Translations under genes and position numbers: made by a program
Shown here: piece after piece, positions 14,737-63,812 of the stretch
Layout: every line of letters starts with the position of its first letter
Numbering within the stretch: position 1 is the stretch's first letter
Assembly: GCA_017609285.1 (NCBI GenBank)
Contig: JAFCEE010000003.1
Coordinates: 11,529 to 75,528 of the forward strand
DNA: 64,000 bases
From: Candidatus Pacearchaeota archaeon
GTDB lineage: Archaea > Nanobdellota > Nanobdellia > Pacearchaeales > GW2011-AR1
Reading direction: 5' to 3'
The notes under the pieces: model-generated
The model's database searches: none
What the model saw: the letters and a program-made list of their open reading frames with translations, nothing else
Told to the model about the DNA's origin: nothing

Positions 14737-14878
14737 TCCCCGCGCCCAGACTCGAACTGGGGATCTTCCGGTTTCTTTCCAGCTGCTCAGATTTCATTTT
14801 TAGTCTTTTTATTTTGACCTTAAATCCATCCTAGTCAAAAGACTACAGCCGGACGCTCTACCACTGAGCTACGCGGGG
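14737..14878 (-). tRNA. tRNA-Tyr(GUA): tRNA-Tyr (anticodon GTA) with a 70-nt intron at the canonical 37/38 position
   Basis: Reverse complement: CCCCGCG-TA-GCTC-AGTGGTA-GAGC-G-TCCGG-CTGTAG[70-nt intron]A-CCGGA-AGATC-CCCAG-TTCGAGT-CTGGG-CGCGGGG. All stems are perfectly paired. Confidence 0.9.
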
Positions 14879-42955: not shown

Positions 42956-42956
42956 A

Positions 42957-44583: not shown

Positions 44584-45003
44584 ATGAATAAAAAAGGAAT
44601 ATCAGCTGTTGTCGCAACAATACTCATTGTTTTGCTTTCAGTTGTTGCTGTAACGATTGTGTGGGCTGTTTTAAAACCTGCTATAACAAAAACTGCGTCA
44701 AGGGTTTCTACTAGTTGTATTGAAGTAGATTTGAGCATTGATGAAGCAGATTGCAGTGCAGGAACTGTAAAGGTAACTTTGAATGCAGGGGAAATAAATA
44801 ACTTAAAATTTATTTTTATAAATGACACCGACTCAAATGTTATTACTAAAGAGCCTCTCGGAGAGTTAGAGACAAAAACATATAAATTTACAGCAAAAGA
44901 AGTTGGAAGCGCAGCTTTTGTAAATGTCGCAGCTGTGATTTTATCAGAAGCTAAAGAAGAGATTACCTGTTCGCCTGTTTTATCAGACCCTTTGCCTTGT
45001 TAA
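44584..45003 (+). CDS. Archaeal type IV pilin-like protein (class III signal peptide), ending in a C-terminal Cys
   Basis: MNKKGISAVVATILIVLLSVVAVTIVWAVL (KKG/ISAVVATIL pre-pilin-type N-terminus). Strong GGAGGT 6 nt upstream. It is paralogous to aa 1-140 of the 848-aa protein (shared ...ELETKTY/F...). It ends ...DPLPC. Confidence 0.7.
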   Translation: MNKKGISAVVATILIVLLSVVAVTIVWAVLKPAITKTASRVSTSCIEVDLSIDEADCSAGTVKVTLNAGEINNLKFIFINDTDSNVITKEPLGELETKTYKFTAKEVGSAAFVNVAAVILSEAKEEITCSPVLSDPLPC

Positions 45004-49114: not shown

Positions 49115-49540
49115 TTAAACAACTGTTCCTCTTATAGATCCTGTTGATGTTTGATTTAAAACACCGCCGGATTTCATGAAAGTTACTGTTACATCTCCTT
49201 TGAATCTGTCTCCAGAATTTAAAGTACAGGATACTGGAATTGTTGCTGTAGAACCATCAGAGATGTCTGTTGGTGTTGTGTAAGAGCCGCAATTTTCTAC
49301 CTCAACATTATTTATTGTTATATCATCTCCTAAACCGTTCCTTATAACCAGAGTTACTCCTGTAGTAGTTATGGTATACTCATCGCAGCCAAGTGGTGCA
49401 TTTAACATACAGGCGCTTGGAACATACCTACTAGGGCTAAAAACGCCGAAGTAAGCTAAAACACCTATAACTATAATTGCCGCTAAAATAGCCCATCCAT
49501 AAGTCATTAAGAACTCCATTGCTGCTTGTCCTTTTTTCAT
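49115..49540 (-). CDS. Archaeal type IV pilin (class III signal peptide, DUF361-like), candidate major pilin
   Basis: MKKGQAAMEFLMTYGWAILAAIIVIGVLAYF (KG/QAAMEFL...). Strong GGAGGT Shine-Dalgarno 7 nt upstream. 141 aa. Confidence 0.75.
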   Translation of the reverse strand: MKKGQAAMEFLMTYGWAILAAIIVIGVLAYFGVFSPSRYVPSACMLNAPLGCDEYTITTTGVTLVIRNGLGDDITINNVEVENCGSYTTPTDISDGSTATIPVSCTLNSGDRFKGDVTVTFMKSGGVLNQTSTGSIRGTVV

Positions 49541-49718
49541 TTTTACCTCCTTTTTTTACTTAAATTAGTATTATATTGTAAGGAGTATATTTAAATCTAT
49601 CGATAGAACATTTAAGATAAACGAGAAATAAAAAATCCATCAAACAGTTCATAAATCGGAAAGGTTTATATATCTTAAAGTTCTTCAAAATATATTATTC
49701 CGGCGGATAGCCATAAAA

Positions 49719-52265
49719 ATGAGAAAAAATAAAAAAGGGTTGAGCCAAATAATTGTAACAATTCTCTTGATTTTGCTTATAATTTTAGCAACAGGAATTT
49801 TTTGGACTACAACAAAAAAAGTTTTCTATAAAAAACCTTTAGAGATTGAGTCACTCATGACTAATTTAAGAATAACAGGTTATAATATTTCAGAAAATCT
49901 TGCTATAATAAGTTTAACCAGAGACCCTGGCGGAGGCGAACTTTTAGGTGTTGCTTTTGTTTTTTATAATGAAACTTCTAATTATATTCATAAAGATTAT
50001 AGACCCATAGCAGAATTAGAAACAAAAACATTTGTTATAGAATTCAAAGATAAAATTTCAGATATCATTAAAATAGAAATCCGTCCAATATTTAAAACAG
50101 AAGAAAAAAAGGAGGATATAGGAAAGCCACAATCTGCTTTAACAAAAACAGAATCTGGATGGATAGTTACTTCTGGGGGTGGAGGAGGTGGAGGCAGGAC
50201 CCCCACTCCACAACCAACACCCTCGCCACCAACACCAACAGTTTATTGGGCTAATTTAGAAGGTGAAGAAATAACTACTGCTACATTAGGAGATACTGTT
50301 TATTTATATTTTATAAATTCAGGATTGCCTCAGGATACAGAAATTTATTTTGAAATTTACGAAAAAGACAGTTTGTTAGTTGGAGACATAGCCCAATTTG
50401 ACGATTTTATTAGAGTAGGAGAAAATAACATTACAGGAACAGTTGATTCAAGTGGAAAGGCAATTGCCACATGGACTATAACACAAGAAGATTATAATTT
50501 AGCGAGTGGAAAATATGAAGAAGGGAATTTAGAATTTTACTTTACTGCTAAAGGAAAGAACTCTGATTATTTATATGTATCTGAACAAGAATGTATTCCA
50601 GATTGCATTGATAAAGAATGTGGTGATGACGGTTGTGGAGGTAGTTGTGGTTCTTGCCCTGCAGGAGAAGAATGTAGTTTTGGAATCTGCATTAATCCTC
50701 TCGAATTAAAACCAGATATGAAAATTAAATTATGGGCTATTCAAGGAAATACTTTTACTGAAACAAGAACAATTTATCTCCCACTCTATGAACAATATGG
50801 AATTGATGTAATTCAAAATGGTTGGGCTGGAATTTTTGCAGGAGATAATTTCCCTTCAAGAGTGGGCTATTGGGCTGGAAACGCCTCATTATATAATATG
50901 GAACTTCATACATATATTAAAACTTATGGGAGTGATATAACCCCTGTAGATTCTGTTTCAAGTTTAGAAATTTGGCCTGATAATTTTAAAGCAATTATGA
51001 TGGATAGTGAAAATAAAGACAGTATTGAAATTCAAGACGCGAGATTTAGTCCTTACAAGGATGTTATTCCTTCAGATGTAAAATTAATTGCTCCTGAAGG
51101 TCCTCACATAAGTTCAAGTATCGAAAGACAATATACTGAAATAGGACAAGTTTGGGGAAGAGTATTTGGATGGGACTGGAAAGTAGTTGATGAAGATGGA
51201 ACAACAAACACAATACAGGATTGTAGGAGGGTTACAGATCTACCAGCTATTATGTATATAGCAGAAAGACAGGGTTTTGGAAATTCTAAATATGGGAATA
51301 AAGAAATTTATATAGGGGCCCAATTACTTAATACATATAAAGAAAAGTTCAATAGTTCTGAAAAAACTAATCCAACTTCTAAAGACTGGTATGAATCTTC
51401 TAAAGAATTTCCAGAAAATGTTAGGTCCTCAATTTATCTTATTGCTCAAGCAAGTTTAAAATCAGCTCACGGTGTTCATTGGGGGCTTCACAAATATAGT
51501 CTTGAAGATTCAATAGATATTTTAGAAAACTTAAAATTAGCTTATGATACTGTAAATTCTCAAAAAATAACTTATGATGCTCATGCGATTAACCCTGTTG
51601 TTGGTGTTTTGATAGACGAAAAAACTAATGTTAACTCGGGGGGGATGAGAGTTATGTGGGAGATGGTCATAAGAGGAAACATCCCTTTTGAAGTTATTTA
51701 TGAAGAAGATTTAACATCAGAGAATCTTGCAAATTATGAGGTATTATTAATACCTCATTTAGATAATGAGAATATTCTAGAATTCGCATCTGATCAACAA
51801 CTAAATTTAAAAAATTTTGGAGAGAATAAATTAATTTTAACAGAGCATAGGGATGCGGCATATACTCCAAAACCTTCATGGGTTACTCCTTTATTATCTG
51901 GCTCACACCATATTTTAAGGTTAGATATAGTTCCTGAAAATTATAACAATTATTGTAATGGATATGAACCTTGTAGAGAGCCAAAACCAACTTTCAGTGG
52001 GTTCAGTGGTTTTATGTATGTAAATGCGAGTTGGAGAAATCCTGGAGAGAATTATTTTCATTATAATGAAACTCAATATCATTATGATGAGAGAATGGAG
52101 TGGTTAATTAGAGATTATCAAAGTAAAATTTATGAAAAAACAGGAGTAAGTCCTTGCAATGAAAATTACAATATCATATGTAAAGAATTTATAATGAATG
52201 GAAAAAGGTATGTCTGGAATGTTAATACAACAGATGGAACAATGGAAATAAAAGCTCTTGATTAA
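49719..52265 (+). CDS. 848-aa pilin-fusion protein: class-III-signal pilin module, poly-Gly/Pro-Thr linker, beta-sandwich, Cys-knot-like module and a ~520-aa unassigned domain
   Basis: MRKNKKGLSQIIVTILLILLIILATG. Linker SGGGGGGGRTPTPQPTPSPPTPT (nt 50171-50240). CIPDCIDKECGDDGCGGSCGSCPAGEECSFGICI. The C-terminal domain contains IPFEVIYEEDLTSENLANYEVLLIPHL, reminiscent of GH42-type trimerisation/GATase-like folds (weak). Confidence 0.65.
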   Translation: MRKNKKGLSQIIVTILLILLIILATGIFWTTTKKVFYKKPLEIESLMTNLRITGYNISENLAIISLTRDPGGGELLGVAFVFYNETSNYIHKDYRPIAELETKTFVIEFKDKISDIIKIEIRPIFKTEEKKEDIGKPQSALTKTESGWIVTSGGGGGGGRTPTPQPTPSPPTPTVYWANLEGEEITTATLGDTVYLYFINSGLPQDTEIYFEIYEKDSLLVGDIAQFDDFIRVGENNITGTVDSSGKAIATWTITQEDYNLASGKYEEGNLEFYFTAKGKNSDYLYVSEQECIPDCIDKECGDDGCGGSCGSCPAGEECSFGICINPLELKPDMKIKLWAIQGNTFTETRTIYLPLYEQYGIDVIQNGWAGIFAGDNFPSRVGYWAGNASLYNMELHTYIKTYGSDITPVDSVSSLEIWPDNFKAIMMDSENKDSIEIQDARFSPYKDVIPSDVKLIAPEGPHISSSIERQYTEIGQVWGRVFGWDWKVVDEDGTTNTIQDCRRVTDLPAIMYIAERQGFGNSKYGNKEIYIGAQLLNTYKEKFNSSEKTNPTSKDWYESSKEFPENVRSSIYLIAQASLKSAHGVHWGLHKYSLEDSIDILENLKLAYDTVNSQKITYDAHAINPVVGVLIDEKTNVNSGGMRVMWEMVIRGNIPFEVIYEEDLTSENLANYEVLLIPHLDNENILEFASDQQLNLKNFGENKLILTEHRDAAYTPKPSWVTPLLSGSHHILRLDIVPENYNNYCNGYEPCREPKPTFSGFSGFMYVNASWRNPGENYFHYNETQYHYDERMEWLIRDYQSKIYEKTGVSPCNENYNIICKEFIMNGKRYVWNVNTTDGTMEIKALD

Positions 52266-52280
52266 TAAAACCTTATTTAT

Positions 52281-53204
52281 CTAACAACTTAATTGATATT
52301 TTGAACAATGAGAAGAATCAATTTTAAACCAAGAGGGCATTCCTTCTATAGAATAACTTTCAGGATTATTTGAGGAAAAATAAATATAATCAACAACACT
52401 TTTGCTTTGGACAAACAAGCCTTGAGCTGAAAGTTCAGGCAAATAAACAAAGCTTTCGATACCATATTCACTTGCTTCCTTTTTTCCTTCTAATCTATTA
52501 ATAAAACTAGGAGCTAATGGATTAGAAGCATAATACTTATTCTCTAAATGTAAAGAAAGGTTCGTTGTGTCTGAGCCGGAAACATAATTTCCTTCATAAA
52601 GAGTTTTATTAATTTTTCTTGAAACTTTTCCTAAGGTTTCCACAATATATATAGGATCTTCAAATCCTTCTACACCTATATATGCTTTTATGTTTTCTTT
52701 TTTATACCATCTTGCTAATCCAGACTTATCTTTAAGTTCTAAAGTTGCGTTAAAATAAACCACGACATTCCAAGGATCTTCTTGACTAACACCGACTTTA
52801 ATGTCAGAAAGATTAATTATTAGATTCATTTTGTCTGCTTTTTCTTGTATCTTTTCTTGTATTTCTGTTATTGTAGTGTCTTGTAAAATTTCTGAAGCAT
52901 CTCCATATATTGTTCCATTTAAAATTGCTTCATTAAATAATTCTGAGAAATTTGATATATAATTACCTGTTTTAGTTATGTAGTCTTCAGCTGAAAAGAT
53001 AATTCTGAAACCAGAAGTGTAAAGTTGTCTTTCAAGGTCTTTTTCTGTAGATAAAAGAAAGGATTCCATTGTTTTTATTCTTGTTTTTATTGTTTGCCTT
53101 TCATACAATACACTATAGATTTCAGAAGATACAAAGAACAATAAAAGCAAAGAAATAGCTATTAAAGTGAATATCTGGCCTTTTTTGTTTCTCACTAAAT
53201 CCAT
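52281..53204 (-). CDS. Pilin-like protein, 307 aa (class III signal peptide), ending in a C-terminal Cys
   Basis: MDLVRNKKGQIFTLIAISLLLLFFV (KKG/QIFTL). The C-terminus is ...SHCSKYQLSC. It overlaps the ICMT-like gene by 10 nt. Confidence 0.6.
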   Translation of the reverse strand: MDLVRNKKGQIFTLIAISLLLLFFVSSEIYSVLYERQTIKTRIKTMESFLLSTEKDLERQLYTSGFRIIFSAEDYITKTGNYISNFSELFNEAILNGTIYGDASEILQDTTITEIQEKIQEKADKMNLIINLSDIKVGVSQEDPWNVVVYFNATLELKDKSGLARWYKKENIKAYIGVEGFEDPIYIVETLGKVSRKINKTLYEGNYVSGSDTTNLSLHLENKYYASNPLAPSFINRLEGKKEASEYGIESFVYLPELSAQGLFVQSKSVVDYIYFSSNNPESYSIEGMPSWFKIDSSHCSKYQLSC

Positions 53205-53659
53205 TTTCTTACCTTTCTTTTATAATCTAAATATTTTCTCCCAAATTTTTTCTCTAAATTTTTCTCCTCAAGAGGAATAGTCCAAATGTTTGTCATAATA
53301 ATAAACAGCAGAGGAAATAAAAAAGTTATTATTGAGCCAAGTAAAATTGCTTCCCCAAACAAAATCAAAGCCATGCCGAGATATATAGGATTTCTGCTTA
53401 TTTTAAAAACTCCTGATGTGATGAGCACTTGCGGAACTTCATTTGGTTTCATTGTGTTTTTTTCCTTTTTATAAACAAAATATACATGTAAATTAAAATA
53501 TATTCCTAAGACAATTAATAATATTCCTAGGTAGTTATATGGGAGGCTTACTACTTTTTTAATTGGAAAAACATAATGCAAAATTATATTTAATACAACC
53601 ATTATCATAAAATAATTGGGCGGCATTATTTTCAATTTCTTTCCCATTTTTATCTCCAT
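53195..53659 (-). CDS. Isoprenylcysteine carboxyl methyltransferase (ICMT)/PEMT-family membrane methyltransferase
   Basis: LITSGVFKISRNPIYLGMALILFGEAILLGS...IPLEEKNLEKKFGRKYLDYKRKVRKWI matches the ICMT-family pattern (G.y...RhPmY.g..l...g......EE..L...FG..Y..Y...v....P). Four to five TM helices. Confidence 0.75.
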   Translation of the reverse strand: MEIKMGKKLKIMPPNYFMIMVVLNIILHYVFPIKKVVSLPYNYLGILLIVLGIYFNLHVYFVYKKEKNTMKPNEVPQVLITSGVFKISRNPIYLGMALILFGEAILLGSIITFLFPLLFIIMTNIWTIPLEEKNLEKKFGRKYLDYKRKVRKWI

Positions 53660-56283
53660 ACTCTAACCTGGACTTCATTACTATAAGTATAAGGGATTCC
53701 TGTAATTTCACTTGAACTTATTTGTAAATCTTGTTCTGAAAATTTGCTATCGACTCTACCATCGGAATTCAAATCTAAATTTGTTAATAAATCATAAACG
53801 GCATTCGAGATTGCATCATTTTCATTGTAAACTATTTTTTCACTAGTAAAATAACAAGCGTTATCTCCAGAGTAATTTTGGGGTACATTTATTGTAATAT
53901 TTGTAAAGTCATAAAACTCTATGTTCCAGGTACAGCCTTGAGAGGAAGCCACAATAGGTGAGTAACCTAAAGCCTGCTTTATTATTGTGTATATTATTTT
54001 GTTGGAATGGGAGCCTCCAGATGAGTTTGCTGGTGAAACTCCAGTAGTTATCTTTACTTCATTTTCACCTTTTTTTATTTTTTCTTTTGGTATATAAATA
54101 AAATAAGGGTCTCCTAACTCTAAATAATCCCCGCCATAAGAAGAAAGATCAAATATTTCTTGCCATGTTTCATTTAGTATACTAACCCTGTCTGTCCATC
54201 TCGGTCCTGAATATGAGACAGCTATAGCCTCTATAACTTCAGAATCTTGAGGGACAGAAAAGTTTCCTATTGAGATATCATTCCCAAACTCTTCTGATTC
54301 TGTAGTTATAATTAAACCATAAGGAGTTTCAGTTTCATAATCGAAATGCATATAAGAATCAGGATACAAAATAGTTTCATTAAATATGCCGCTTATGTTT
54401 GCTACCTGTTCTATAAATCCTAATTCAAGAATTTCTTGGGCTATGTTTGTATAAATATCTTGTAAAATATTTGGATTCTGGCTTGCATAATATTTGCCTT
54501 TACCACAATTAGCTATATTCTGTAAAGTTTTATTTGCCATATCACAATCAGAAACAGGGCCGAAACCTATTGCATAAACTTTAGCATTCATTTCATTCCT
54601 CAATCTACAGGAAGACCAATTTGCATTTTGGCTCGCACACCAACAATCGTTTACATCACAATCATCCACCCCACCATAACATCCAACCCCCCATCCCAAC
54701 CATAAACCCTCATTTCCCGGTGTGCCATCTCTTGTTCCTTCGCAACCAGAAGCTGCCTGGCATGTATGTGTAGGGATGCCGTCAGACATAACTATCACGA
54801 ATTTTTGCCTACTATCATTACTTTGCTCATTTAGAATATTGTAAGCATTGTTTTCAGAACAGCAAATACAAGTTCCTCCTCTTGGTGTATATTCATCTAT
54901 TTTTTGTTTTAGATAAGCTGAATTATTTGTTAAACCTTCTTGATAAACTCTTCCTTTGTAAGGGTTTGTTGTGTCTCCATAAAAAGCAGATAAAGCTACT
55001 CTATTCCCCGAGATATTTAGAATCATATCTACCACCATCTTATCTAAACATTTAGCTAAAGAAATTCTTTTTGTATCTGAGTTATATAACCTAGGATCAT
55101 CACATTCCCTACTTACACCTGAACGATCAGAATCCATTCTTGAATCCATGCTTCCACTTAAATCAGTAATTAAAACAACATCTGCATTTCCTTGTTTTAT
55201 TTTCTCCTGAATTTCATATAGGCCTAACCTTATTGGTATTGTCTTTTTACTTATCTCTTGATAATTAAGTAAAGATGAAAGTTGTGTGTTTGTTATTGTC
55301 TCTTGTTTGTCTCCAGAGCCCTCATAAACTGTTGTGTTTCCTATAGTTAGAAAAAGTTTATATGGACTGTAATAGTGTAAAAAGATTTCCATTCCTGTTA
55401 TATCAAAAGGAGAATAAAAAGAATCATAGATGTTTATTATTCCTTCTATACCTGGAAAAAATTTTTTCTTTTCTTGGGCAGGCGTAGTATCATCAAAATT
55501 TATTTTTATATAGCCTCCAGCTATGTATAAGTTTTCTCCTCTTAACTCGAGGATATTCTCACCGGAATGAAAGTTAGTTATAGGTATGGTGCACTTTTGA
55601 GGCGAGTAAAGGGGGGTTATCTTTTCATAATGTGCTTCAAAATTTTCATTCACATATAAATCAAAATCTTTATTGATTGCTATTTCCATTAAAGCAGATT
55701 TTATGTTGCCCTCATAATCTATTCTAACAGAAAGATTTCCATCACCAACATAACCGCCAAAATAAAAGTATTTAACATTACTTGCCCTTTCCAAGAAAGC
55801 GCGGGCTGAAAACCCCCTCACATTTTCGCCTTTTTCTATCCCACTTATGATTTGTCTTGAGATCCATATTTGTTCTGCTTGTTCTATTGGCGTTGTATTA
55901 TAAGAAGCTATTAGTTCATCATCAAACCATATTCCTATGTTATTTTCTGGTGAAAGTTCTGAAAGTATATTTTCAGTTAATGTTTCAGCTTCAGGCATAC
56001 CTTTTGCATAAAACTCTATTATCTGCTCCAAAATTGTTAAATTTCCAGACGCCTTATTTTCTGCGAGAAGTTGGGAAACATAAGAATTATTAATCTCATT
56101 TGTTTTTAATGTTGACAGAATAGACAACAAATCATTTTGTATTTCTACTTGTATAGTTTCTTGTTTAGTTACTGGCTTGATAACTAAAATAACTGCAAGA
56201 ATCACAACTAAAGCTATAAATGCATCTAAGGTATAATAATAAGCCTTTTTTCCTTTTATTTTTAACATTTTAATTCCACACAT
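53650..56283 (-). CDS. 877-aa pilin-like-anchored von Willebrand factor A (vWA) domain protein, Cys-rich
   Basis: N-terminus KGKKAYYYTLDAFIALVVILAVILVI. MIDAS ADVVLITDLSGSMDS (nt ~55150-55185) with downstream FVIVMSDGIPT. A Cys-rich insert CQAASGCEG...GCYGGVDDCDVNDCWC. The alternative ATG at 56268 gives a 1-nt gap after the upstream stop. Confidence 0.8.
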   Translation of the reverse strand: MCGIKMLKIKGKKAYYYTLDAFIALVVILAVILVIKPVTKQETIQVEIQNDLLSILSTLKTNEINNSYVSQLLAENKASGNLTILEQIIEFYAKGMPEAETLTENILSELSPENNIGIWFDDELIASYNTTPIEQAEQIWISRQIISGIEKGENVRGFSARAFLERASNVKYFYFGGYVGDGNLSVRIDYEGNIKSALMEIAINKDFDLYVNENFEAHYEKITPLYSPQKCTIPITNFHSGENILELRGENLYIAGGYIKINFDDTTPAQEKKKFFPGIEGIINIYDSFYSPFDITGMEIFLHYYSPYKLFLTIGNTTVYEGSGDKQETITNTQLSSLLNYQEISKKTIPIRLGLYEIQEKIKQGNADVVLITDLSGSMDSRMDSDRSGVSRECDDPRLYNSDTKRISLAKCLDKMVVDMILNISGNRVALSAFYGDTTNPYKGRVYQEGLTNNSAYLKQKIDEYTPRGGTCICCSENNAYNILNEQSNDSRQKFVIVMSDGIPTHTCQAASGCEGTRDGTPGNEGLWLGWGVGCYGGVDDCDVNDCWCASQNANWSSCRLRNEMNAKVYAIGFGPVSDCDMANKTLQNIANCGKGKYYASQNPNILQDIYTNIAQEILELGFIEQVANISGIFNETILYPDSYMHFDYETETPYGLIITTESEEFGNDISIGNFSVPQDSEVIEAIAVSYSGPRWTDRVSILNETWQEIFDLSSYGGDYLELGDPYFIYIPKEKIKKGENEVKITTGVSPANSSGGSHSNKIIYTIIKQALGYSPIVASSQGCTWNIEFYDFTNITINVPQNYSGDNACYFTSEKIVYNENDAISNAVYDLLTNLDLNSDGRVDSKFSEQDLQISSSEITGIPYTYSNEVQVRVWR

Positions 56284-56785
56284 ATAGTGTTAGTTTGACA
56301 GGTTTATTTTCATAAATCATAAACCTTTCAATCCTGACAAGATTTTTTTGTTCTGCCGGGATTTTTCCTATACCATCTATATCCTCACCCATAACCCTAA
56401 TTCCTGGAAAATAAAAATAAAAATCGTATCTTATGCCTAATAATTTTTTTAATTTTTTATAATCTTCCTCACTATCTGTTAGGTTATAGAAAAAATCCAG
56501 TTTAGTTTGATTTATTTTTTTCTGACTTAAAATTCCTGGAATTTCTACGTTGTCATAAGAAGTCCAGTTTTTTGGGCTTCCTTCTGATAAAATTAAATTT
56601 GAGAGAAGATATCCATCATAAAACATAGATTCTAAAATATCTCCTGAAGTTGAAACAAAATTTATTACATACACGTAAATAGCCACTATCCCAATTAAGA
56701 ATATAATTACAGCTATTATAAGATCAAATCCCCAAATCTGTCCTTGTTTTTCTGTATGATTAGGAGTTAAGATAAACCTTGCCAT
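56270..56785 (-). CDS. Pilin-like protein, 171 aa (class III signal peptide)
   Basis: TEKQGQIWGFDLIIAVIIFLIGIVAIYVY. It overlaps both neighbours. Confidence 0.55.
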   Translation of the reverse strand: MARFILTPNHTEKQGQIWGFDLIIAVIIFLIGIVAIYVYVINFVSTSGDILESMFYDGYLLSNLILSEGSPKNWTSYDNVEIPGILSQKKINQTKLDFFYNLTDSEEDYKKLKKLLGIRYDFYFYFPGIRVMGEDIDGIGKIPAEQKNLVRIERFMIYENKPVKLTLYVWN

Positions 56786-57149
56786 CTTGTTTTTTTATAA
56801 TATTCCTTCCTTTTTGTATTTGTCCATCTACCTCTTTTATTTTTAAAGAGAGCGCGTTCCTTGTTGTCTTGATATAAATGCTACCATCTACAATTTCTAT
56901 ACTATAATCTCTTCCTAAAATCAGTTCTGGAACTGAAAATTCTCTGATATAGCCATCAGAAGCTTCTGTAGCAATATTAATTTCATCTTGTATGCCTAAT
57001 GCTAAATTTTTAATAAGCAAATTTTCTTTTTCCTTACCTTTTTCCTCTGTTTGAGTCCCAATTGCAATAAAGAATACTGTGAAGGAGAATAATACTAATC
57101 CTAAAATAATTAAAAATTCTATGCCAGATTGACTTCTTCTCTTTTTCAT
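56760..57149 (-). CDS. Pilin-like protein, 129 aa (class III signal peptide, DUF361-like)
   Basis: MKKRRSQSGIEFLIILGLVLFSFTVFFIAI (QSGIEFLI motif). Confidence 0.65.
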   Translation of the reverse strand: MKKRRSQSGIEFLIILGLVLFSFTVFFIAIGTQTEEKGKEKENLLIKNLALGIQDEINIATEASDGYIREFSVPELILGRDYSIEIVDGSIYIKTTRNALSLKIKEVDGQIQKGRNIIKKQDGKVYLNS

Positions 57150-57159
57150 TTTTATTTTC

Positions 57160-57588
57160 TTAGCTTATAATAACTTTATCAGGCTGAGCTTTAATTAGTA
57201 ATTTTCTTGAACCTTCTCCAACCTGAATACTGCCTTCTAATGTAACTCTTGAAGAGAAAGCTCTTTTCATTGTTCCTGTAGATGTAGAAAAAGTTATTAT
57301 CAAATTTTTTTCATTAAATTCTATATTTTTAATTCCTTGAGGCATATATATTGTTATTGTAGTTTGAGAAGGTTCTCCTGCAAAAAAAACAGACTCTGCT
57401 GAACTAATAATTTTTGTGGCGATGGTTTCTATTTGATTTATTCTTATTCTGTCTCTTGAAATACCAATGTAAAAATATGCTGCTATTAAAATCGTGGTAA
57501 CAGCAAGAGTAACAAATCCTGTTATGATTAAATACTCAATTCCAGACTGCCCTTTATATTTAGATCGTAAATGTGTTTTGAGTTTCAC
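57160..57588 (-). CDS. Pilin-like protein, 142 aa (class III signal peptide, DUF361-like)
   Basis: RSKYKGQSGIEYLIITGFVTLAVTTILIAAYF (QSGIEYLI motif). Confidence 0.65.
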   Translation of the reverse strand: MKLKTHLRSKYKGQSGIEYLIITGFVTLAVTTILIAAYFYIGISRDRIRINQIETIATKIISSAESVFFAGEPSQTTITIYMPQGIKNIEFNEKNLIITFSTSTGTMKRAFSSRVTLEGSIQVGEGSRKLLIKAQPDKVIIS

Positions 57589-57706
57589 TTTTCTTTACCT
57601 CTTTTCTTTATTGTATTTTTAGTAAGATTTATAATACCAAAATTCTTTAATTTATAATTAAAGTGAATGATAATTTATAAAGATTTGGAAAACATCGCAA
57701 AGAAAA

Positions 57707-58183
57707 ATGGGAAAAAAGAGGGATTTTTTTATCGTATTATTAATACTAATGTTTTTAGCAGCCTCAAATACTCTTGTTTATTCTGATAAAACCAATATAA
57801 AGGTTTCTGGTTTTTCTATAAAAAATGTTTACGATAAGTTGATGAAGTTAGATATGTCTACAATAATTTTCGTGATTCAATGGTTTTTGGTTTTAGTTGT
57901 TGTTATTATTTTTTATATTAATTTTTTGAAAAAGAGGAGAAAAGAAAAAGCTAAACCTGTTAATATGAATGTAAAGAAGAAAACTGGGACGGATGTGGAC
58001 ACAGATTTAGATATTCTTTACAACTTATTGAAACAAAAAAAGCGTTTAAAAATTTCTGTGATTGCTAAAACTTTTAAGGTGAATAATGAAAAAGCATTGG
58101 AGTGGTCTAGGATTTTAGAAAATAATGATTTAGTAAAAATAGAACATTTCGCATTTTCTGAACCAGAAGTTGAAATAAAATGA
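57707..58183 (+). CDS. Membrane protein with a C-terminal winged-helix-like domain, first gene of the ATPase operon
   Basis: Signal/TM at the N-terminus, a second TM (IIFVIQWFLVLVVVIIFYINFL), then LDILYNLLKQKKRLKISVIAKTFKVNNEKALEWSRILENNDLVKIE. Its stop overlaps the ATPase start (ATGA). Confidence 0.45.
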   Translation: MGKKRDFFIVLLILMFLAASNTLVYSDKTNIKVSGFSIKNVYDKLMKLDMSTIIFVIQWFLVLVVVIIFYINFLKKRRKEKAKPVNMNVKKKTGTDVDTDLDILYNLLKQKKRLKISVIAKTFKVNNEKALEWSRILENNDLVKIEHFAFSEPEVEIK

Positions 58184-59928
58184 GGAAAAAGAAAAGGGGA
58201 TTGGAAAGGGAGAAGAAAAAAGTTGGGAAAATTAGAAGAAAACATAGAGAAAAGAAAGCTATACAAACAAAAATTGGAAAATCTCTTAAATTTAAGTATA
58301 AGGAGGGGGAGCAAAAACAAGGGAAGACAGCTAACAATACCGATAGAAAAATAAGATTAGTAGAATTGAAGAGTGAAAAAAGAGAAATTGAAAAAAAACA
58401 AAAAAGAAAACTGAAAAAGAAAAAGAAGAAAGAGAAAGATGTTAAAAGTAAGGTTATAGAGCGATACGAGTTAAATGTTGACAATGCTATAGTAAATATT
58501 AAGATAGAACAGGGGGGAGAAGGCTTAGCATATAATTTATACATGCCAAAGATTGGCATAGGAACTCTTGCTTTACTTGAAGAGGTAAGAAAAGAGCTGA
58601 TTTCTGTTACAACGATTGGTGTTGGTGAAATGACAGATATAAAATCAATAGCGAGAATAAAGAGGCAGTTTATGAAGCAGATTTCAAAATTATTGAGGGA
58701 GAAAGTTCCTAACATTAGCTTAAAGGCAGAGAGATTTTTGGTAGGAATTTTAATGCAAGAAATGCTAGGTTTGGGTAAGCTGGAGTTTTTAATAAACGAT
58801 CCACACTTAGAAGAAATAGTTGTCATTAGCAGTAAAGAACCTGTAAGGGTATATCATAAAAAATATGGATGGCTTCCTACTAATATAAGAATAGATAAAG
58901 AAGAGGACATAAATAATTATGCAAATATAATTGCAAGAAGAGTAGGAAGGCAAATAAATATTTTAACTCCTTTATTAGATGCTCATGTAGTTACTGGAGA
59001 TAGAGCAAATGCTGTTTTATATCCTATTGCCACTAAAGGTAGCACTATAACTATAAGAAAATTTGCTAGGGACCCTTGGACTATAATCGATTTAATTAAT
59101 AATAAAACAGTTAATTTAGAAATAGCTGCTTTATTATGGCTTGCTATAGAATATGAGATGAATATTCTAATTTCTGGAGGTACAGCCTCAGGAAAAACAG
59201 TTTTTTTAAATGCATGTATGCCCTTTATCCCTCCAAATCAGAGAGTTATTAGTATAGAAGACACAAGAGAATTAATGTTGCCTAAATTTTTGTATTGGTG
59301 CCCTCTTGTTACAAGAATACCAAATCCAGAAGGGAAGGGCGAGGTTTCTATGTTGGACTTATTAGTAAATAGCTTAAGAATGAGGCCTGATAGAATTGTC
59401 TTAGGAGAAATGAGAAGACAGAGAGAGGCTGAAGTATTGTTTGAGGCAATGCATACTGGCCATTCTGTTTATGCTACTGTTCATGCAGATACTGCATCTG
59501 AAACAATATCAAGATTAACAAATCCCCCACTAAATGTTCCTCCTAACCTTTTGAAAGCAGTGAACTTGAATGTGGTAATGTTCAGAGATAGGAGAAGAGG
59601 AATAAGAAGAGTTTATCAGGTTGCTGAATATATAGCTAGTAGAGATGGAGTTACTCCGAATATTCTTTATAGGTGGGCTCCTGATAGAGACGAAATAGTA
59701 AAACATAATAATAGTATAATTTTTATGGAAGAGCTGGGTAGAAATACAGCAATGTCACAAAAAGAGATAAATGAAAGTCTTGAAGAGAAAAAAAAGATTC
59801 TTTCATGGATGTTAAGGCATAATCTCAGAAGCTTTGAGCAGATAGGAAAAGTGATGAGTCTTTACTATACAAATCCAAAACTACTTTCTGAAATTATAAA
59901 AAAAGATGATTTGAGCAAAATAAAATAA
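58180..59928 (+). CDS. Type II/IV secretion-family ATPase (FlaI/PilB/TadA-like) with a ~100-aa polybasic N-terminal extension
   Basis: Walker A ISGGTASGKTVFLNA, Asp box VISIEDTRELMLP, Walker B RMRPDRIVLGEMR, His box HTGHSVYATVHA. The N-terminus MRKKKRGLEREKKKVGKIRRKHREKK...KKKKKKEKD is unusual. Confidence 0.9.
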   Translation: MRKKKRGLEREKKKVGKIRRKHREKKAIQTKIGKSLKFKYKEGEQKQGKTANNTDRKIRLVELKSEKREIEKKQKRKLKKKKKKEKDVKSKVIERYELNVDNAIVNIKIEQGGEGLAYNLYMPKIGIGTLALLEEVRKELISVTTIGVGEMTDIKSIARIKRQFMKQISKLLREKVPNISLKAERFLVGILMQEMLGLGKLEFLINDPHLEEIVVISSKEPVRVYHKKYGWLPTNIRIDKEEDINNYANIIARRVGRQINILTPLLDAHVVTGDRANAVLYPIATKGSTITIRKFARDPWTIIDLINNKTVNLEIAALLWLAIEYEMNILISGGTASGKTVFLNACMPFIPPNQRVISIEDTRELMLPKFLYWCPLVTRIPNPEGKGEVSMLDLLVNSLRMRPDRIVLGEMRRQREAEVLFEAMHTGHSVYATVHADTASETISRLTNPPLNVPPNLLKAVNLNVVMFRDRRRGIRRVYQVAEYIASRDGVTPNILYRWAPDRDEIVKHNNSIIFMEELGRNTAMSQKEINESLEEKKKILSWMLRHNLRSFEQIGKVMSLYYTNPKLLSEIIKKDDLSKIK

Positions 59929-59938
59929 GTTTCATAAA

Positions 59939-60820
59939 ATGAAATTCAAGATACCTTTTACATTTTCAAGTATAGATATTTTAAAGAAAAGAGGCAAGAG
60001 ATTTTCCCGCATTTTTCGAGTTAAAAAAAAATCAAAGCTTTCTACATATTTGAAAGATTCAGACGTAAACCTGTCTAAAGAAGAGTATCTTGGTATATGT
60101 TTGAGAACATTTTTCTTTGTTTTTATTCTTTTACTAGTCATTTTTACTTCTCTCCTCGGAATTCTAAAAGTCAGTTATTTTTACTTTTATGGTTTATTTG
60201 CCTCACTTATTTTTTCTTTTTTTATTTTTTTTATGCAAATAAATTATCCGAGGGTTTACAGTTTCAGAAAGACGAGAGATATTGAGAAAAATTTGATTCC
60301 GTCTTTACAGGATATGTTAGTCCAATTGGAATCCGGTGTTCCAATATTTCAGATTTTAGCAAATATATCTTCCTCTGGTTATGGATTTGTTAGTTATGAA
60401 TTTAGGAGGGCAGTAAAAGAAATAAATTCAGGAGTTCCTCAGATAGAAGCCTTAGAAGACTTAATCAAAAGAACATCATCTACATATTTTAAGAGAGTCT
60501 TATGGCAGATAAGCAATGGTTTGAGGAGCGGGAGTGATATGTCTGTTGTCATAAAAGATAGTATTGATAGTTTAAATAAAGAACAAGCTATTCAAATTCA
60601 GACTTATGGGAGCAAATTAAATCCCTTAGTTATGTTTTATATGCTGATAACTGTAATTATACCCTCTCTTGGAATAACTTTTCTAACTATTTTGTCATCT
60701 ATGTTGGGTTTGTCTGGCAGTTTAGTAAAGTTAATGTTTATTGCTACATTTATTTTTGTTTTATTAATACAAATAATGTTTTTAGGTTTAATTAAAACAA
60801 GGAGGCCTAGTTTATTATGA
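59939..60820 (+). CDS. Type IV filament platform protein with a single T2SSF domain (TadB/FlaJ-half-like)
   Basis: LIPSLQDMLVQLESGVPIFQILANIS...FRRAVKEINSGVPQIEALEDLIKR...VLWQISNGLRSGSDMSVVIKD, with TM helices at both ends. Confidence 0.75.
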   Translation: MKFKIPFTFSSIDILKKRGKRFSRIFRVKKKSKLSTYLKDSDVNLSKEEYLGICLRTFFFVFILLLVIFTSLLGILKVSYFYFYGLFASLIFSFFIFFMQINYPRVYSFRKTRDIEKNLIPSLQDMLVQLESGVPIFQILANISSSGYGFVSYEFRRAVKEINSGVPQIEALEDLIKRTSSTYFKRVLWQISNGLRSGSDMSVVIKDSIDSLNKEQAIQIQTYGSKLNPLVMFYMLITVIIPSLGITFLTILSSMLGLSGSLVKLMFIATFIFVLLIQIMFLGLIKTRRPSLL

Positions 60821-61785
60821 ATACCCTAAAACTTATTCCAAAAAAATTAAGAAAAAGTTATGAAAAGAATATTTCAAATGCTGGCATAAAGATAAGTCCT
60901 GAAAAATATGTTTCCAGGTTGTTTTTTACAGGGATTATATCTGCAACATTATTAAGTCTAATATTATTTTTTTTTAAAGTTAATCCTATTCTTACTTTTG
61001 TCTTAACTTTTTTTATCTTGCAAATAATATTTTACTTTAGATTATCTCTACTTGCTACTGCAAGAATCAAGAAGATGGAATCTGTGTTTCCTGATTTTAT
61101 ACAATTAATGTCAAGTAATCTAAGAGCAGGGCTTACTGTTGATAAAGCTTTTTTATCCTCGGCAAGACCGGAACTAGCCCCTCTTGACGAAGAAATTTTG
61201 AAAACAGGAAGAGAGATAGCTACTGGACAAGATATTATTTTAGCTTTTAGGAATATGGGAAAAAGGGTAGATTCAGAAAAAATAGAGAAAATTATTTCCC
61301 TTATTATCTCTGGTTTGAAAGCAGGAGGCAATATTTCTACTTTGCTTGAAACAACCGCCTCAAACATGAGAGAAAAAGAGTTTTTAGAAAAAAGGGCAGC
61401 CTCTAATGTTTTAATGTATGTTATTTTTATTTTTGTTGCTGTTGGATTTGGTGCTCCACTGTTGTTTGGACTTTCCTCTATTCTTGTTGAGATCATAATC
61501 AATTTGACAGCGCAACTTCCTAGTGCTCAGGCTACTCAAATAAATCTCCCTTTTACTCTTTCATATTTAGGCTTATCACCAAAATTCATACTTTATTTTT
61601 CTTTACTTTTCTTAATTGCAATTGATATTGTTTCGAGTTTAGTCATTGGTTTGGTTAATAAAGGAGATGAGAAATATGGGTTAAAATATATTTTTCCTTT
61701 AATTGCATTATCTATAGGAATTTTTTTTGGCGTTAGGTTTTTTCTTTACCGAGTTTTAGTCGAGAGCTTTTCTATTGTTTCTTAA
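60817..61785 (+). CDS. Type IV filament platform protein with a single T2SSF domain (TadC/FlaJ-half-like)
   Basis: VFPDFIQLMSSNLRAGLTVDKAFLSSA...LDEEILKTGREIATGQDIILAFRNMGKRV...IISLIISGLKAGGNISTLLE. It overlaps the upstream gene by 4 nt. Confidence 0.75.
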   Translation: MNTLKLIPKKLRKSYEKNISNAGIKISPEKYVSRLFFTGIISATLLSLILFFFKVNPILTFVLTFFILQIIFYFRLSLLATARIKKMESVFPDFIQLMSSNLRAGLTVDKAFLSSARPELAPLDEEILKTGREIATGQDIILAFRNMGKRVDSEKIEKIISLIISGLKAGGNISTLLETTASNMREKEFLEKRAASNVLMYVIFIFVAVGFGAPLLFGLSSILVEIIINLTAQLPSAQATQINLPFTLSYLGLSPKFILYFSLLFLIAIDIVSSLVIGLVNKGDEKYGLKYIFPLIALSIGIFFGVRFFLYRVLVESFSIVS

Positions 61786-61840
61786 AGTTTTTATAAACTT
61801 AAAGAAAAAGCTTTATAAGTTTAAATTCTCTAAAGAAAAT

Positions 61841-62566
61841 ATGAAAAAGAGAAAAATTAAAAGGAAAAAAGAGGTTAGGATTAATAGTGGAATAAAAGGT
61901 TTTGATGATTTAGTAGAAGGTGGTTTTGATGAAGGTTCTGTAAATATGATTGTTGGTAGCTCTGGTTCAGGAAAAACGATATTTGCCTTACAGTTCTTAA
62001 TGGCTGGTTTGAAAAAAGGGGAGTCTTGCTTGTATGTTACATTTGAGGAGAAGAAAGAAGAGTTTTATGATAATATGAAAAATTTTGGATGGGATCTTAG
62101 TAAATATGAAAAAAAAGGAAAATTTTTCTTTCTTGAGTACAGCCCTGAAAAAGTTAAAGTTATGATTGAAGAAGGGGGAGGGGAAATGGAGAGTATAGTT
62201 ACTAGACATAAGATAACTAGATTAGTTATAGATTCTGTAACTTCTTTTGCTTTATTATTTGAAGATGAACTTGAAAAGAGAGAGGCAGCTTTAGCTTTAT
62301 TTGATATTATAAGGAAATGGAAATGTACTAGTTTATTAACTTTAGAAGAAGATCCAAAAGAAAGGAAGGGTGGATCTTCTTCTTTGGAATTTGAGGTTGA
62401 TAGTATTATACTTCTTTATTTTATAAGACAGAAAAGGAAAAGAAAGAGGTTTGTTGAGGTACTCAAAATGAGAGGAACCAAACATTCTAATGAAATTCAT
62501 GCTCTTGAGATAGGAGAATCTGGGATAGAAGTTTCTAAGGAAATTTATGTTAATGGTATAGATTAA
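61841..62566 (+). CDS. KaiC/RecA-superfamily ATPase (FlaH-like)
   Basis: INSGIKGFDDLVEGGFDEGSVNMIVGSSGSGKTIFALQFL...CLYVTFEE...LVIDSVTS...EVLKMRGTKHS (COG0467 pattern). The ORF track starts at 61775, but the ATG at 61841 follows aaagctttataag, a TATA-like box. Confidence 0.8.
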   Translation: MKKRKIKRKKEVRINSGIKGFDDLVEGGFDEGSVNMIVGSSGSGKTIFALQFLMAGLKKGESCLYVTFEEKKEEFYDNMKNFGWDLSKYEKKGKFFFLEYSPEKVKVMIEEGGGEMESIVTRHKITRLVIDSVTSFALLFEDELEKREAALALFDIIRKWKCTSLLTLEEDPKERKGGSSSLEFEVDSIILLYFIRQKRKRKRFVEVLKMRGTKHSNEIHALEIGESGIEVSKEIYVNGID

Positions 62567-62702: not shown

Positions 62703-63812
62703 ATGAAATGGGAAAAAGGAGCTAAAGAAACTTTAATAGGTTATGGTTTGGCAGCCGGAGTTTTATTAATTGGAAGTCTATATATTATGAATAAAAGTGA
62801 GGTAAGAGAAGGTGAAAGAAGTTTAAGACAGGAGTCCGGTTTGGTTAAAGTTGTGAAAGAAGAAAGTTCAACAATCAGCAACGGAGGAATTGAGAGAAAT
62901 TCAATTCGTAAAAAGCCAGAGATAAGAAAGGGGTTACAAAAAACAGCAACATATGATTTTGATAATTATATTTCAGCTATTTTTGATATTGAAAGTTCTG
63001 ATAATCCAAATGCTCAAAGATATGAACCGGGGATAAATGACACAAGTTATGGGTTAGGCCAAATTTTAACAAATGTTGCTTTAACATTAGAAAGAAGAAA
63101 TCCAAATTTACCGAGAATTTCAGATTATTCTGGATTAGATGAAAAATTAGAAAGTGATGAAAGAAAATTAGCAGAAGAAAGTTTAGTTAGATTATATGGA
63201 AAGAGAGCAAGAGTAAAAACAAAAAGAGGAGGGTGGGAAATTCAAGAAATAAAAATTGATGGTAACTTCGAGGGGGATTTAGTTGCTCAGGAATTTTTAA
63301 GGAGAATACAAAGAAAACATAATCTAAGAGTAAAAGGAGAATTAGATGACGCAACATATCAAGCAATACAAAAAGAAAGGCATTTGCAAGATATGTTAAC
63401 TAATCCTAAAATAAATGAGGCTTACACAAGGGCATTGTTTAGAGAGGAATTAGAGTATTTTAATGATGCAGAATTAGCTGTTGCTGCATATAATGCAGGA
63501 AGGCCTGCTGTTATTAATGCTGCTTATCAAACAATGTTAAATGAATTTTTAGGAACATCATTAAAACCAGATGGAGTTATTGGTAATAAAAGTAGGGAAG
63601 TTATAAGAAAATTTCAAGAAAGGTATGGATTAAGAGTTGATGGAATTCTTGGACCAAATACAAAAGCAAGGATACGGGAGGTTTATGAAACACTAATAGG
63701 AAAATCCCCTTTAAAAGGAGCTATGCCCCAAAATAGATATACTCCAAATCATGTTAGAAAATTTAATGCTGCTCTAGAAACAATTGAAAAACATAAGAAA
63801 ACAAGAAATTAA
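62703..63812 (+). CDS. Membrane-anchored lytic transglycosylase (SLT family 1 motifs) with peptidoglycan-binding (PG_binding_1) repeats
   Basis: TM LIGYGLAAGVLLIGSLYIM. SLT motifs FDIES (catalytic E-S), YGLGQI, LTNPKINEAYTRALF and AVAAYNAG. PGB repeat PDGVIGNKSREVIRKFQERYGLRVDGILGPNTKARI, plus a degenerate one (LRRIQRKHNLRVKGELDDATYQAIQ) inserted within the SLT domain. Confidence 0.8.
   Translation: MKWEKGAKETLIGYGLAAGVLLIGSLYIMNKSEVREGERSLRQESGLVKVVKEESSTISNGGIERNSIRKKPEIRKGLQKTATYDFDNYISAIFDIESSDNPNAQRYEPGINDTSYGLGQILTNVALTLERRNPNLPRISDYSGLDEKLESDERKLAEESLVRLYGKRARVKTKRGGWEIQEIKIDGNFEGDLVAQEFLRRIQRKHNLRVKGELDDATYQAIQKERHLQDMLTNPKINEAYTRALFREELEYFNDAELAVAAYNAGRPAVINAAYQTMLNEFLGTSLKPDGVIGNKSREVIRKFQERYGLRVDGILGPNTKARIREVYETLIGKSPLKGAMPQNRYTPNHVRKFNAALETIEKHKKTRN

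Follow-up and report, generated by a model that had tools for sequence, protein, structure and literature searches.

Pacearchaeota and Woesearchaeota rank with the most abundant archaea that have yet to be cultured. The locus described here, from a contig of a Candidatus Pacearchaeota archaeon (JAFCEE010000003.1), raises the question of what surface machinery such cells encode and what it would do for them. The analysed stretch (hereafter the window) is 64 kb long; the locus fills positions 49115-62566, and one further pilin gene stands alone at 44584-45003. Our answer, held with a probability of about 75%, is that these genes serve to assemble an archaeal type IV pilus built on Epd/Tad-like ('System 1'-like) lines, versions of which are conserved across the DPANN archaea. 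It brings together several parts that distinguish type IV filament (TFF) superfamily loci, namely a T2SSE-family assembly ATPase, an adjacent T2SSF platform and subunits that combine class III signal sequences with a pilin fold.

All 15 open reading frames (ORFs) under consideration are present in the ORF map of the window, which reproduces exactly the coordinates given in a first-pass annotation of this DNA (Table 1). Two divergent runs form the body of the locus: six minus-strand genes at 52281-57588 (307, 154, 877, 171, 129 and 142 aa) and five plus-strand genes at 57707-62566 (158, 582, 293, 322 and 263 aa), the latter encoding, in order, a protein with two transmembrane segments (2-TM protein), the assembly ATPase, two platform proteins and a KaiC-family ATPase. 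The spacer between them has the 118 bp first reported for it and probably acts as a promoter region for both operons. Left-operon genes overlap by 10, 10, 14 and 26 nt, within the 10-26 nt originally given, except at the fifth junction (57149/57160), which is a 10-nt gap; the right-operon junctions are, in order, a 4-nt overlap, a 10-nt gap, a 4-nt overlap and an 11-nt overlap. The left operon does comprise six genes, one of which, the 154-aa gene, encodes a methyltransferase and not a pilin. The same divergent layout appears in the gene-call tables of three long related contigs. Assignment to a DPANN archaeon also stands: the window contains an intron-bearing tRNA, and close homologues of every core gene are labelled Pacearchaeota, Woesearchaeota or Nanoarchaeota. 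The tRNA match (14737-14878, minus strand), whose 142 nt imply an intron, was found by Rfam and missed by ARAGORN.

The split platform, recognised from the outset as a Tad/Epd-like feature of a type IV filament locus, is supported. Pfam finds one T2SSF domain in each of the two platform proteins, as had been proposed. Compared with a two-domain haloarchaeal platform protein of 701 aa, the first is closest to the N-terminal T2SSF domain (E 7e-5; C-terminal domain, 0.11) and the second to the C-terminal one, and the two are distant paralogues of each other (E 2e-6). Because they correspond to the N-terminal and then the C-terminal half of a two-domain gene, in that order, the pair points to gene fission. 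Epd-like archaeal pili and bacterial Tad systems share two contiguous single-T2SSF genes derived from fission, then an ATPase and a secondary ATPase, which is FlaH in Epd and TadZ in Tad (Denise 2019). Bacterial Tad is reported to derive from an Epd-like archaeal system, with the split platform inferred as the state ancestral to Tad (Denise 2019), and the corresponding clade 1 of archaeal pili is described as carrying a pair of TadC genes together with five or more minor pilins and adhesins of large size (Makarova 2016).

The 582-aa assembly ATPase belongs to the T2SSE/VirB11 secretion superfamily and falls below every NCBIfam cut-off, with 290 bits against 550 for FlaI, 180 against 373 for TadA (TIGR03819) and 145 against 1000 for BasE. 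Its PDB matches are headed by afGspE (244 bits), followed by FlaI (197) and CpaF (166); the first place of afGspE reflects its longer C-terminal alignment, and pairwise identities are nearly equal (afGspE 35.4%, a haloarchaeal ATPase 35.3%, FlaI 36.5%, CpaF 35.0%). Placement of the ATPase in clade 2, which the top afGspE score would suggest, was therefore rejected on these identities and on a neighbour-joining (NJ) tree of 462 columns and 100 bootstraps, a crude construction with few references and none from EpdL/clade 1 or clade 4. In this tree afGspE, FlaI, the haloarchaeal ATPase and a second ATPase of a Nanohaloarchaeota genome form a group with 100% support that excludes the DPANN clade, so that the ATPase would be neither of clade 2 nor of the archaellum type, within the limits of so crude a tree. 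Membership in System 1 is consistent with these data, and the ATPase clade is a distinct and less documented one. NCBI often names the ATPase CpaF, and some sources call its homologues 'FlaI'. The protein opens with a disordered low-complexity tail rich in K and R; tails of homologues range from 0 to 213 aa (median 61 aa, 32% K+R) and have no conserved sequence.

The last gene of the right operon was initially read as a KaiC/FlaH-like ATPase, and it is the KaiC part of this reading that holds. The protein scores 171 bits with KaiC_arch_3 and only 50-54 bits with ArlH/FlaH models, whose cut-offs are 194-215 bits; PDB matches to KaiC CI-type domains reach E 2.6e-61, and the translation contains a Walker A motif (GSSGSGKT), a TFEE motif and a Walker B motif (LVIDS). 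Canonical KaiC has two RecA-like domains with Walker A/B motifs and a catalytic EE. With one domain in 263 aa, the present protein is a single-domain archaeal KaiC-like protein and not a clock KaiC, and its role is probably accessory or regulatory.

These scores also bear on an archaellum-like motility apparatus, for which it may be said that FlaI is the best NCBIfam match of the ATPase and that 'FlaI' occurs among the names of its homologues. We give this explanation practically no chance. The supposed archaellum-like parts of the first-pass annotation do not hold up, with FlaI and ArlH (50 against 215 bits) both far under their cut-offs; the platform is split instead of being a two-domain ArlJ, and ArlJ models reach 33 bits against 400, on one platform half only. 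No archaellin family or stator gene is matched among the locus proteins in Pfam or NCBIfam, no ArlF/G/X/CDE was detected, and the NJ tree separates the ATPase from FlaI, which lies in the reference clade with 100% bootstrap.

Upstream of the ATPase, the 2-TM protein has a cytoplasmic C-terminal domain that is winged-helix-like. The earlier description of a membrane protein with a winged helix-turn-helix (wHTH) agrees with the predicted transmembrane segments; the winged helix is suggested by weak profile matches to archaeal wHTH regulators (1SFX, E 0.019; 2D1H, 0.04; LrpA, 0.054; overall E 0.02-0.06). The conserved part is the C-terminal ~60 aa (TDxDxLY..LSxIAKxFxV...AxEWxKILE..L..I.YP.FGEPE). 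The stop of the gene overlaps the ATPase start by 4 nt, and we favour a structural partner of the ATPase over a membrane-tethered regulator because of this tight translational coupling and the fixed position of the gene. A second 158-aa protein of the window (2466-2942, minus strand) has the same architecture, with two transmembrane segments and a C-terminal wHTH (DUF7343/MarR). Kinship between the two was considered and rejected, no pairwise similarity being detected.

The locus is widely conserved. Window proteins were compared by phmmer with six-frame ORFs of 80 loci, one genome per GTDB species, 35 of them with full flanks. Relatives of the ATPase number in the thousands, the best 120 at 61-99% identity, and in these 80 DPANN species genomes it recurs at 43-77% identity, its carriers belonging to Woese- and Pacearchaeota, Nanoarchaeota, Aenigmat-, Micr-, Iain-, Alti- and Nanohaloarchaeota. 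Synteny across DPANN genomes, which the first-pass annotation had proposed as a check, is conserved, the split platform standing beside the ATPase in 66 of the 80 loci. Eleven of the 35 full loci, among them one from an Aenigmatarchaeota genome, hold all five pilin families of the left operon, and this five-gene minor-pilin set recurs in Woese-, Pace- and Aenigmatarchaeota. None of the 80 loci contains the methyltransferase gene, the 848-aa protein, the 139-aa pilin or the downstream lytic transglycosylase, and these four are accordingly not core parts. Contigs binned as Methanobacteriota, Methanosarcinales and Saccharibacteria (loci L034, L035, L060 and L068) also carry DPANN-type ATPases, at 44-55% identity; their nesting inside the DPANN clade suggests mis-binning or horizontal transfer.

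The substrates of this machinery can be recognised by their N-termini, which were compared family by family using homologues from 85 related loci. Across phyla, each of six pilin families retains a leader of basic character, a small amino acid at position -1 and a helix that is hydrophobic. This motif conservation, together with matches of Pfam Class_IIIsignal (PF04021) to 13 family members (best E 6.7e-6) and the pilin folds, supports the eight prepilin-like proteins originally listed. Of the seven said to have KG↓ termini (the arrow marking the predicted cleavage site), only five show KG↓x in the strict sense; the N-terminus reads KQG↓Q in the 171-aa protein and RS↓Q in the 129-aa protein. 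Class_IIIsignal is also the best Pfam match, below threshold, of the N-termini of the 141- and 142-aa proteins (142 aa, E 0.44). No Flp, TadE or Tad Pfam domain matches any of the eight.

The 141-aa protein is the candidate major pilin, a role suggested by analogy and by copy number. It has 1670 homologues, some named 'UPF0333 family' by the Joint Genome Institute (JGI), and the family, with the site [KR][GAS]↓QAAMEFLMTYGWAIL, is almost invariant over its first 20 residues. An AlphaFold2 (AF2) model (pLDDT 85) predicts a long N-terminal helix (residues 3-30) and a beta-sandwich, and Foldseek finds the best PDB folds in a Pyrobaculum type IV pilus (8FK7, E 4.6e-5) and the Aap pilin of Sulfolobus acidocaldarius (8Q30). 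Profile comparison by hhalign connects the smaller subunits: the 142-aa family, with the conserved motif KG↓Q(S/I)GIEY, is homologous to the 141-aa family (97.3%, E 2e-11), and the 129-aa family aligns over its full length with the 142-aa one as a paralogue (97.8%, E 9e-13). DUF7266 is matched by the 129-aa protein of the window (E 8e-4) and by 15 members of its family. The 307-aa protein matches no Pfam family; its own family has the site K[GS]↓QIFTLIA, and the gene usually adjoins the vWA gene in related loci.

The two remaining prepilin-like proteins are of another type. The 139-aa stand-alone pilin has a weak Pfam Pilin_N match (E 0.083) and a strong hydrophobic stretch after the class III motif, and the N-terminal 137 aa of the 848-aa protein are paralogous to it (30% identity, E 7e-9). 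Beyond this pilin module the 848-aa protein continues with a Gly/Pro linker, a module rich in Cys and a domain of unknown function of ~500 aa. It matches no Pfam family and is the sole full-length member of its kind among 1.84 billion representative proteins; its other matches cover the Cys-rich repeat (residues 291-326) and, rarely, residues 334-713.

So many prepilin-like subunits could also be taken as parts of a short pseudopilus, comparable to a type II secretion system (T2SS) or the Sulfolobus bindosome, which would display or release large class III signal proteins (the vWA and 848-aa proteins) and build no long pilus. Five minor-pilin-like genes in one operon recall the GspG-K systems, two giant proteins do carry prepilin N-termini, and a 2026 preprint argues that many class III signal peptide (SPIII) proteins 'functionalise' TFF machineries. 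The explanation is nevertheless quite improbable, as it leaves aside a stand-alone pilin linked to the locus that is highly conserved, often occurs in several copies and has the fold of an archaeal type IV pilus (T4P) subunit; moreover, BasE is a poor model for the ATPase and the locus has no substrate-binding proteins. A pilus proper remains the preferred reading.

What such a pilus would do is suggested above all by the 877-aa protein, a modular pilin with a von Willebrand factor A (vWA) domain. Comparison within its family, whose N-terminal pattern is [KR][GA]↓xxFTLDA, moves the processing site in the window from the KG↓KK first proposed to the conserved K-K-A↓YYYTLDAF. Pfam VWA (PF00092) covers residues 368-612 with 24.6 bits against a cut-off of 23.8. 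The DxSxS...T...D metal site of the vWA fold is present, and across 51 homologues D374, S378 and D501 of this metal ion-dependent adhesion site (MIDAS) are invariant and S376 and T471 nearly so. Full-length homologues at 40-90% identity amount to hundreds of proteins from DPANN metagenome-assembled genomes (MAGs). The AF2 model (pLDDT 85.5) has a prepilin-type helix at the N-terminus (residues 14-35), a region of helices, a beta-sandwich, the vWA domain at 348-622 and, at the C-terminus, beta domains. Foldseek ranks first among PDB structures the vWA-bearing type IV minor pilin PilB of Streptococcus sanguinis (7BA2/7B7P, E 1.7e-11); after it stand PitA, Mfa5, SpaC and GBS104, which are tip adhesins from sortase and type V pili. 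The comparison with TadG, made at the outset, holds. These findings are the strongest functional clue of the locus and suggest a modular pilin through which the filament would display an adhesion domain that depends on metal. Attachment to a host, as first suggested, or to a surface is the most plausible role.

A pilus that mainly takes up DNA or scavenges nucleotides, feeding the nucleoside salvage typical of Pacearchaeota, would be a different answer. Pili have been proposed to import DNA in Undinarchaeota and Nanohaloarchaeota, and the window encodes a secreted or anchored protein with staphylococcal-nuclease (SNase) and lamin-tail (LTD) domains (11657-12385, plus strand). We consider a competence-like role unlikely, given that a vWA/MIDAS module is what the conserved accessory protein offers, with pilus adhesins as its closest structural counterparts, that neither the locus nor syntenic loci showed a DNA-binding pilin, ComEC or DprA, and that there is no retraction ATPase. 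The two roles are not mutually exclusive.

For an adhesive pilus the following sequence of events may be envisaged. Prepilins would insert in the membrane and be trimmed after [KR][GAS] by a PibD/EppA-type A24 peptidase encoded elsewhere. The minor pilins of 142, 129, 171 and 307 aa and the 877-aa vWA pilin would form a priming complex that ends up at the filament tip, after which a hexameric ATPase, docked on the two-protein platform and possibly held at the membrane by the 2-TM/winged-helix protein, would add the globular 141-aa pilin as the major subunit. The KaiC-like ATPase might modulate the motor, or else how strongly it is expressed, in the way that ArlH acts on ArlI and TadZ on Tad, and the MIDAS of the vWA pilin could bind a ligand on a partner cell or surface, making the filament an adhesion or host-attachment pilus. 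The PilA-type pilins encoded at 44584 and 49719 may be lineage-specific extra substrates.

Several observations weigh against assigning the locus to an Epd/Tad-like pilus. The Pfam vWA score of the 877-aa protein is marginal, though it is clear in relatives. Short Flp- or EpdE-like pilin ORFs are absent from the window and from the small genes of two related loci (L001 and L002), a departure from canonical Epd and Tad filaments, although the genome might encode one elsewhere. The NJ tree, built with no clade 1 (EpdL) or clade 4 reference, places the ATPase only in relation to the afGspE and FlaI group, outside it. The tip location, the major and minor assignments and the adhesive role draw on analogy and copy number. 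Finally, no A24 prepilin peptidase or EppA was found by Pfam among the checked multi-TM ORFs of the window. Among 39 multi-TM ORFs screened in the 85 related loci a single Peptidase_A24 occurs, 1 kb upstream of the orthologous ATPase in a Nanohaloarchaeota locus (L044) where a second ATPase, one resembling afGspE, is encoded as well. In four Micrarchaeota loci a signal-peptide peptidase of presenilin type (PF06550, a GxGD protease) lies ~8 kb downstream of the orthologous ATPase, and no A24 prepilin peptidase was seen in the examined stretches of these four.

Table 1. Positions, supporting evidence and recurrence of the pilus genes, of adjacent features and of peptidase genes in related loci (coordinates refer to the window unless a related locus is named; ↓, predicted cleavage site; counts refer to the 80 species loci)
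Feature	Position	Strand	Evidence or predicted site	Recurrence
Stand-alone PilA/Pilin_N-type pilin, 139 aa	44584..45003	+	NKKG↓ISAVVATILIV
Candidate major pilin, 141 aa	49115..49540	-	MKKG↓QAAMEFLMTYGWAIL; Glu at +5	39/80; 2-3 tandem copies in seven
PilA-type modular pilin, 848 aa (accessory)	49719..52265	+	NKKG↓LSQIIVTILL
Minor pilin-like protein, 307 aa	52281..53204	-	NKKG↓QIFTLIAI; class III N-terminus conserved	25/80
PEMT/ICMT-family 4-TM membrane methyltransferase, 154 aa	53195..53659	-	Pfam PEMT, E 1e-14
Modular pilin with vWA/MIDAS domain, predicted adhesin, 877 aa	53650..56283	-	KKA↓YYYTLDAFIAL	20/80
Minor pilin-like protein, 171 aa	56270..56785	-	EKQG↓QIWGFDLIIA; family motif K[GA]↓QxWxxDL	34/80
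Minor pilin, 129 aa	56760..57149	-	RRS↓QSGIEFLII; Glu at +5; family motif [KR][GAS]↓QxxIEF	26/80
Minor pilin, 142 aa, first left-operon gene	57160..57588	-	YKG↓QSGIEYLII; Glu at +5	35/80
Divergent intergenic region	57589..57706	.	118 bp, AT-rich, TTTATAA-type boxes facing both operons
2-TM protein with cytoplasmic C-terminal winged-helix-like domain, 158 aa	57707..58183	+	TM prediction and profile search	36/80, directly upstream of ATPase
Secretion-superfamily (T2SSE/VirB11) assembly ATPase, 582 aa	58180..59928	+	Pfam T2SSE (PF00437), E 4.6e-34
N-terminal tail of ATPase	58180-58464	+	~95 aa, 46% K+R
Platform protein, first half, 293 aa	59939..60820	+	one T2SSF domain (PF00482), E 7e-17	66/80 with two distinct single-domain T2SSF ORFs beside ATPase; 34/35 with full flanks
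Platform protein, second half, 322 aa	60817..61785	+	one T2SSF domain (PF00482), E 2e-15	as above
Single-domain KaiC-family (RecA-superfamily) ATPase, 263 aa	61775..62566	+	Pfam KaiC (PF06745), E 8.8e-61	29/80, beside platform genes
Membrane-anchored lytic transglycosylase	62703-63812	+	SLT domain and two PG_binding_1; ES...GLGQ...AYNAG motifs in translation
Peptidase_A24, Nanohaloarchaeota	L044:8197-9120	-
PF06550 peptidase, Micrarchaeota	L055:19124-19990
PF06550 peptidase, Micrarchaeota	L058:15536-16366
PF06550 peptidase, Micrarchaeota	L064:19065-19982
PF06550 peptidase, Micrarchaeota	L081:18606-19463

One neighbouring gene appears to be a later arrival. The PEMT methyltransferase gene sits between the vWA and 307-aa pilin genes with a 10-nt overlap on each side; it is present in the same slot solely in L086, whose ATPase is 93% identical, and is absent in L087 and L001 (80-83% identity), while L004 has a low-molecular-weight (LMWPc) phosphatase in this slot, a distribution that indicates a recent lineage-specific insertion. 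In L002 a RelE/ParE-like pair is inserted between two minor pilin genes. The window has a small gene pair of its own at 42680-43289 (plus strand), the second member of which is weakly like YoeB/ParE toxins. The lytic transglycosylase gene directly follows the KaiC gene and keeps this position in L001 only, which makes it suggestive context rather than a part of the system. A role as prepilin-type cargo was considered and rejected: the protein matches KG↓A loosely and without conservation of the site, and in L001 its homologue starts with a signal/TM stretch of the ordinary kind. Murein hydrolases are known in Pace- and Woesearchaeota and have been read in the literature as a sign of bacterial hosts; the gene fits published proposals that some of these archaea attack or attach to bacteria. 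Further away, a matrixin and CARDB protease (12681-13631, plus strand) and the SNase and LTD protein are consistent with an extracellular scavenging lifestyle. Two consecutive plus-strand ORFs in different frames (24970-25953 and 25979-26479) look, by N-terminal sequence, like pieces of one thermosome (Cpn60/TCP1-type) gene and could reflect a frameshift, a pseudogene or an assembly error.

It is tempting to go one step further. We tentatively regard it as possible that the four minor pilins and the vWA/MIDAS pilin form a host-recognition device of Woese-, Pace- and Aenigmatarchaeota, placed at the tip of a pilus driven by a DPANN-specific ATPase clade situated between archaeal Epd and bacterial Tad; the membrane-anchored lytic transglycosylase beside the locus in this lineage means that the partner could be a bacterium. 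If so, there would for the first time be a concrete molecular lead to the way in which the largest uncultured groups of DPANN archaea select and retain their hosts, and the vWA modular pilin offers a testable adhesin candidate. In any case the locus is a complete and strongly conserved pilus machinery whose pilin set earlier DPANN studies could not annotate; thus, Tad-like clusters with kaiC were reported in Nanohaloarchaeota with the remark that 'no pilins were annotated' (Xie et al. 2022). A groundwater preprint described type IV pilus components as 'missing in DPANN genomes' and used pili to call cells CPR (candidate phyla radiation) bacteria (bioRxiv 10.1101/2020.05.14.094862), a premise contradicted by conserved DPANN pilus loci. 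The locus also documents, in a deep archaeal lineage, the split-platform state inferred by Denise et al. to be ancestral to Tad. The most useful new element is the conserved modular pilin with the vWA domain, together with the four minor pilins that accompany it.

How, then, does this pilus compare with known systems? The first-pass annotation had not recognised the combination as a described one; however, a split platform with a secondary RecA/KaiC-type ATPase is what characterises Epd-like or System 1 pili (Makarova 2016; Denise 2019), and KaiC ATPases in archaeal T4P operons and TadG-type vWA proteins have been described as well (Makarova 2016). The 2026 preprint lists DPANN among System 1 carriers and reports two-platform 4A variants in DPANN. 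With clade 2 or System 2 (afGspE AF0659; Haloferax PilB3/PilB4) the locus shares the highest PDB bit score of its ATPase, and two tadC-like genes are found in many loci of clade 2, as are KaiC neighbours, while the window also holds two PilA/Pilin_N-type pilins. It differs in that the fully supported afGspE/FlaI/haloarchaeal group excludes the DPANN clade, by a crude method with few references, in that a single two-domain gene (701 aa) encodes the platform in the haloarchaeal locus used for comparison, and in that the conserved pilins here are of UPF0333 and not PilA type.

Resemblance to bacterial Tad/Flp (type IVc) pili lies in the split platform (TadB/TadC), the CpaF-like ATPase at 35% identity, the pseudopilins with a vWA protein as TadG analogue, and the adhesive function, here predicted. 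Against this stand the TadA score far below its cut-off, the lack of an Flp pilin and of TadE/Tad Pfam domains, a platform order that follows the N- and then the C-half of the archaeal gene, and a KaiC-type secondary ATPase; neither a secretin nor TadZ turned up in the locus, no search having been aimed at either. The closest counterpart of the vWA pilin, S. sanguinis PilB, likewise fuses a prepilin N-terminus to a MIDAS-bearing vWA module and is its best structural match, but it comes from a different domain of life and shares 16-18% identity, and the 877-aa protein has double its size, adding a further helical region, a beta-sandwich and beta domains at the C-terminus. Beyond the vWA fold there is no sign of common descent with PilB or with PilY1/TadG-type adhesins.

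The Epd or System 1 pili (clade 1, Methanococcus maripaludis EpdA-L) share with the locus two adjacent single-T2SSF platform genes, a secondary RecA-type ATPase and pilins with a Q-x-x-x-E class III motif (PF04021/UPF0333 type), and they too have at least five minor pilins and large adhesin-like proteins. Whether the locus belongs to a known pilus clade with the same gene complement, a point raised in the first-pass annotation, has a divided answer: its core lies within a described class, whereas its accessory complement differs from that of M. maripaludis. The Epd major pilin is ~70 aa long and lacks a globule (arCOG06620, EpdE-type), the candidate here has 141 aa and a beta-sandwich; Epd has a dedicated 9-TM EppA, of which no equivalent was found among the checked multi-TM ORFs of the window; Epd adhesins are DUF2341 proteins, and here a vWA modular pilin takes this place. 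The gene order ATPase-platform-platform-KaiC, the added 2-TM winged-helix-like protein and the K/R-rich disordered tail of the ATPase are further differences.

Such differences could be read, as the first-pass annotation did, as the mark of a categorically new hybrid of archaellum, Tad and Epd parts. The ATPase clade is indeed distinct and about equidistant (35-36%) from afGspE, FlaI and CpaF, below every NCBIfam cut-off, and the vWA pilin, the TM-winged-helix protein and the globular major pilin are not in the M. maripaludis Epd set. Yet each feature thought to be mixed is already present in published descriptions of Epd-like/System 1 and related archaeal T4P, and the supposed archaellum parts are not ArlI or ArlH orthologues and come with no archaellins or stator genes, which leaves such a hybrid very improbable. 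Less documented are the distinct ATPase clade, the globular candidate major pilin, unlike Flp or EpdE, and the 877-aa modular pilin; taken as a whole, the locus represents an archaeal pilus class that is already described, in a form specific to this lineage, and not a new kind of machine.

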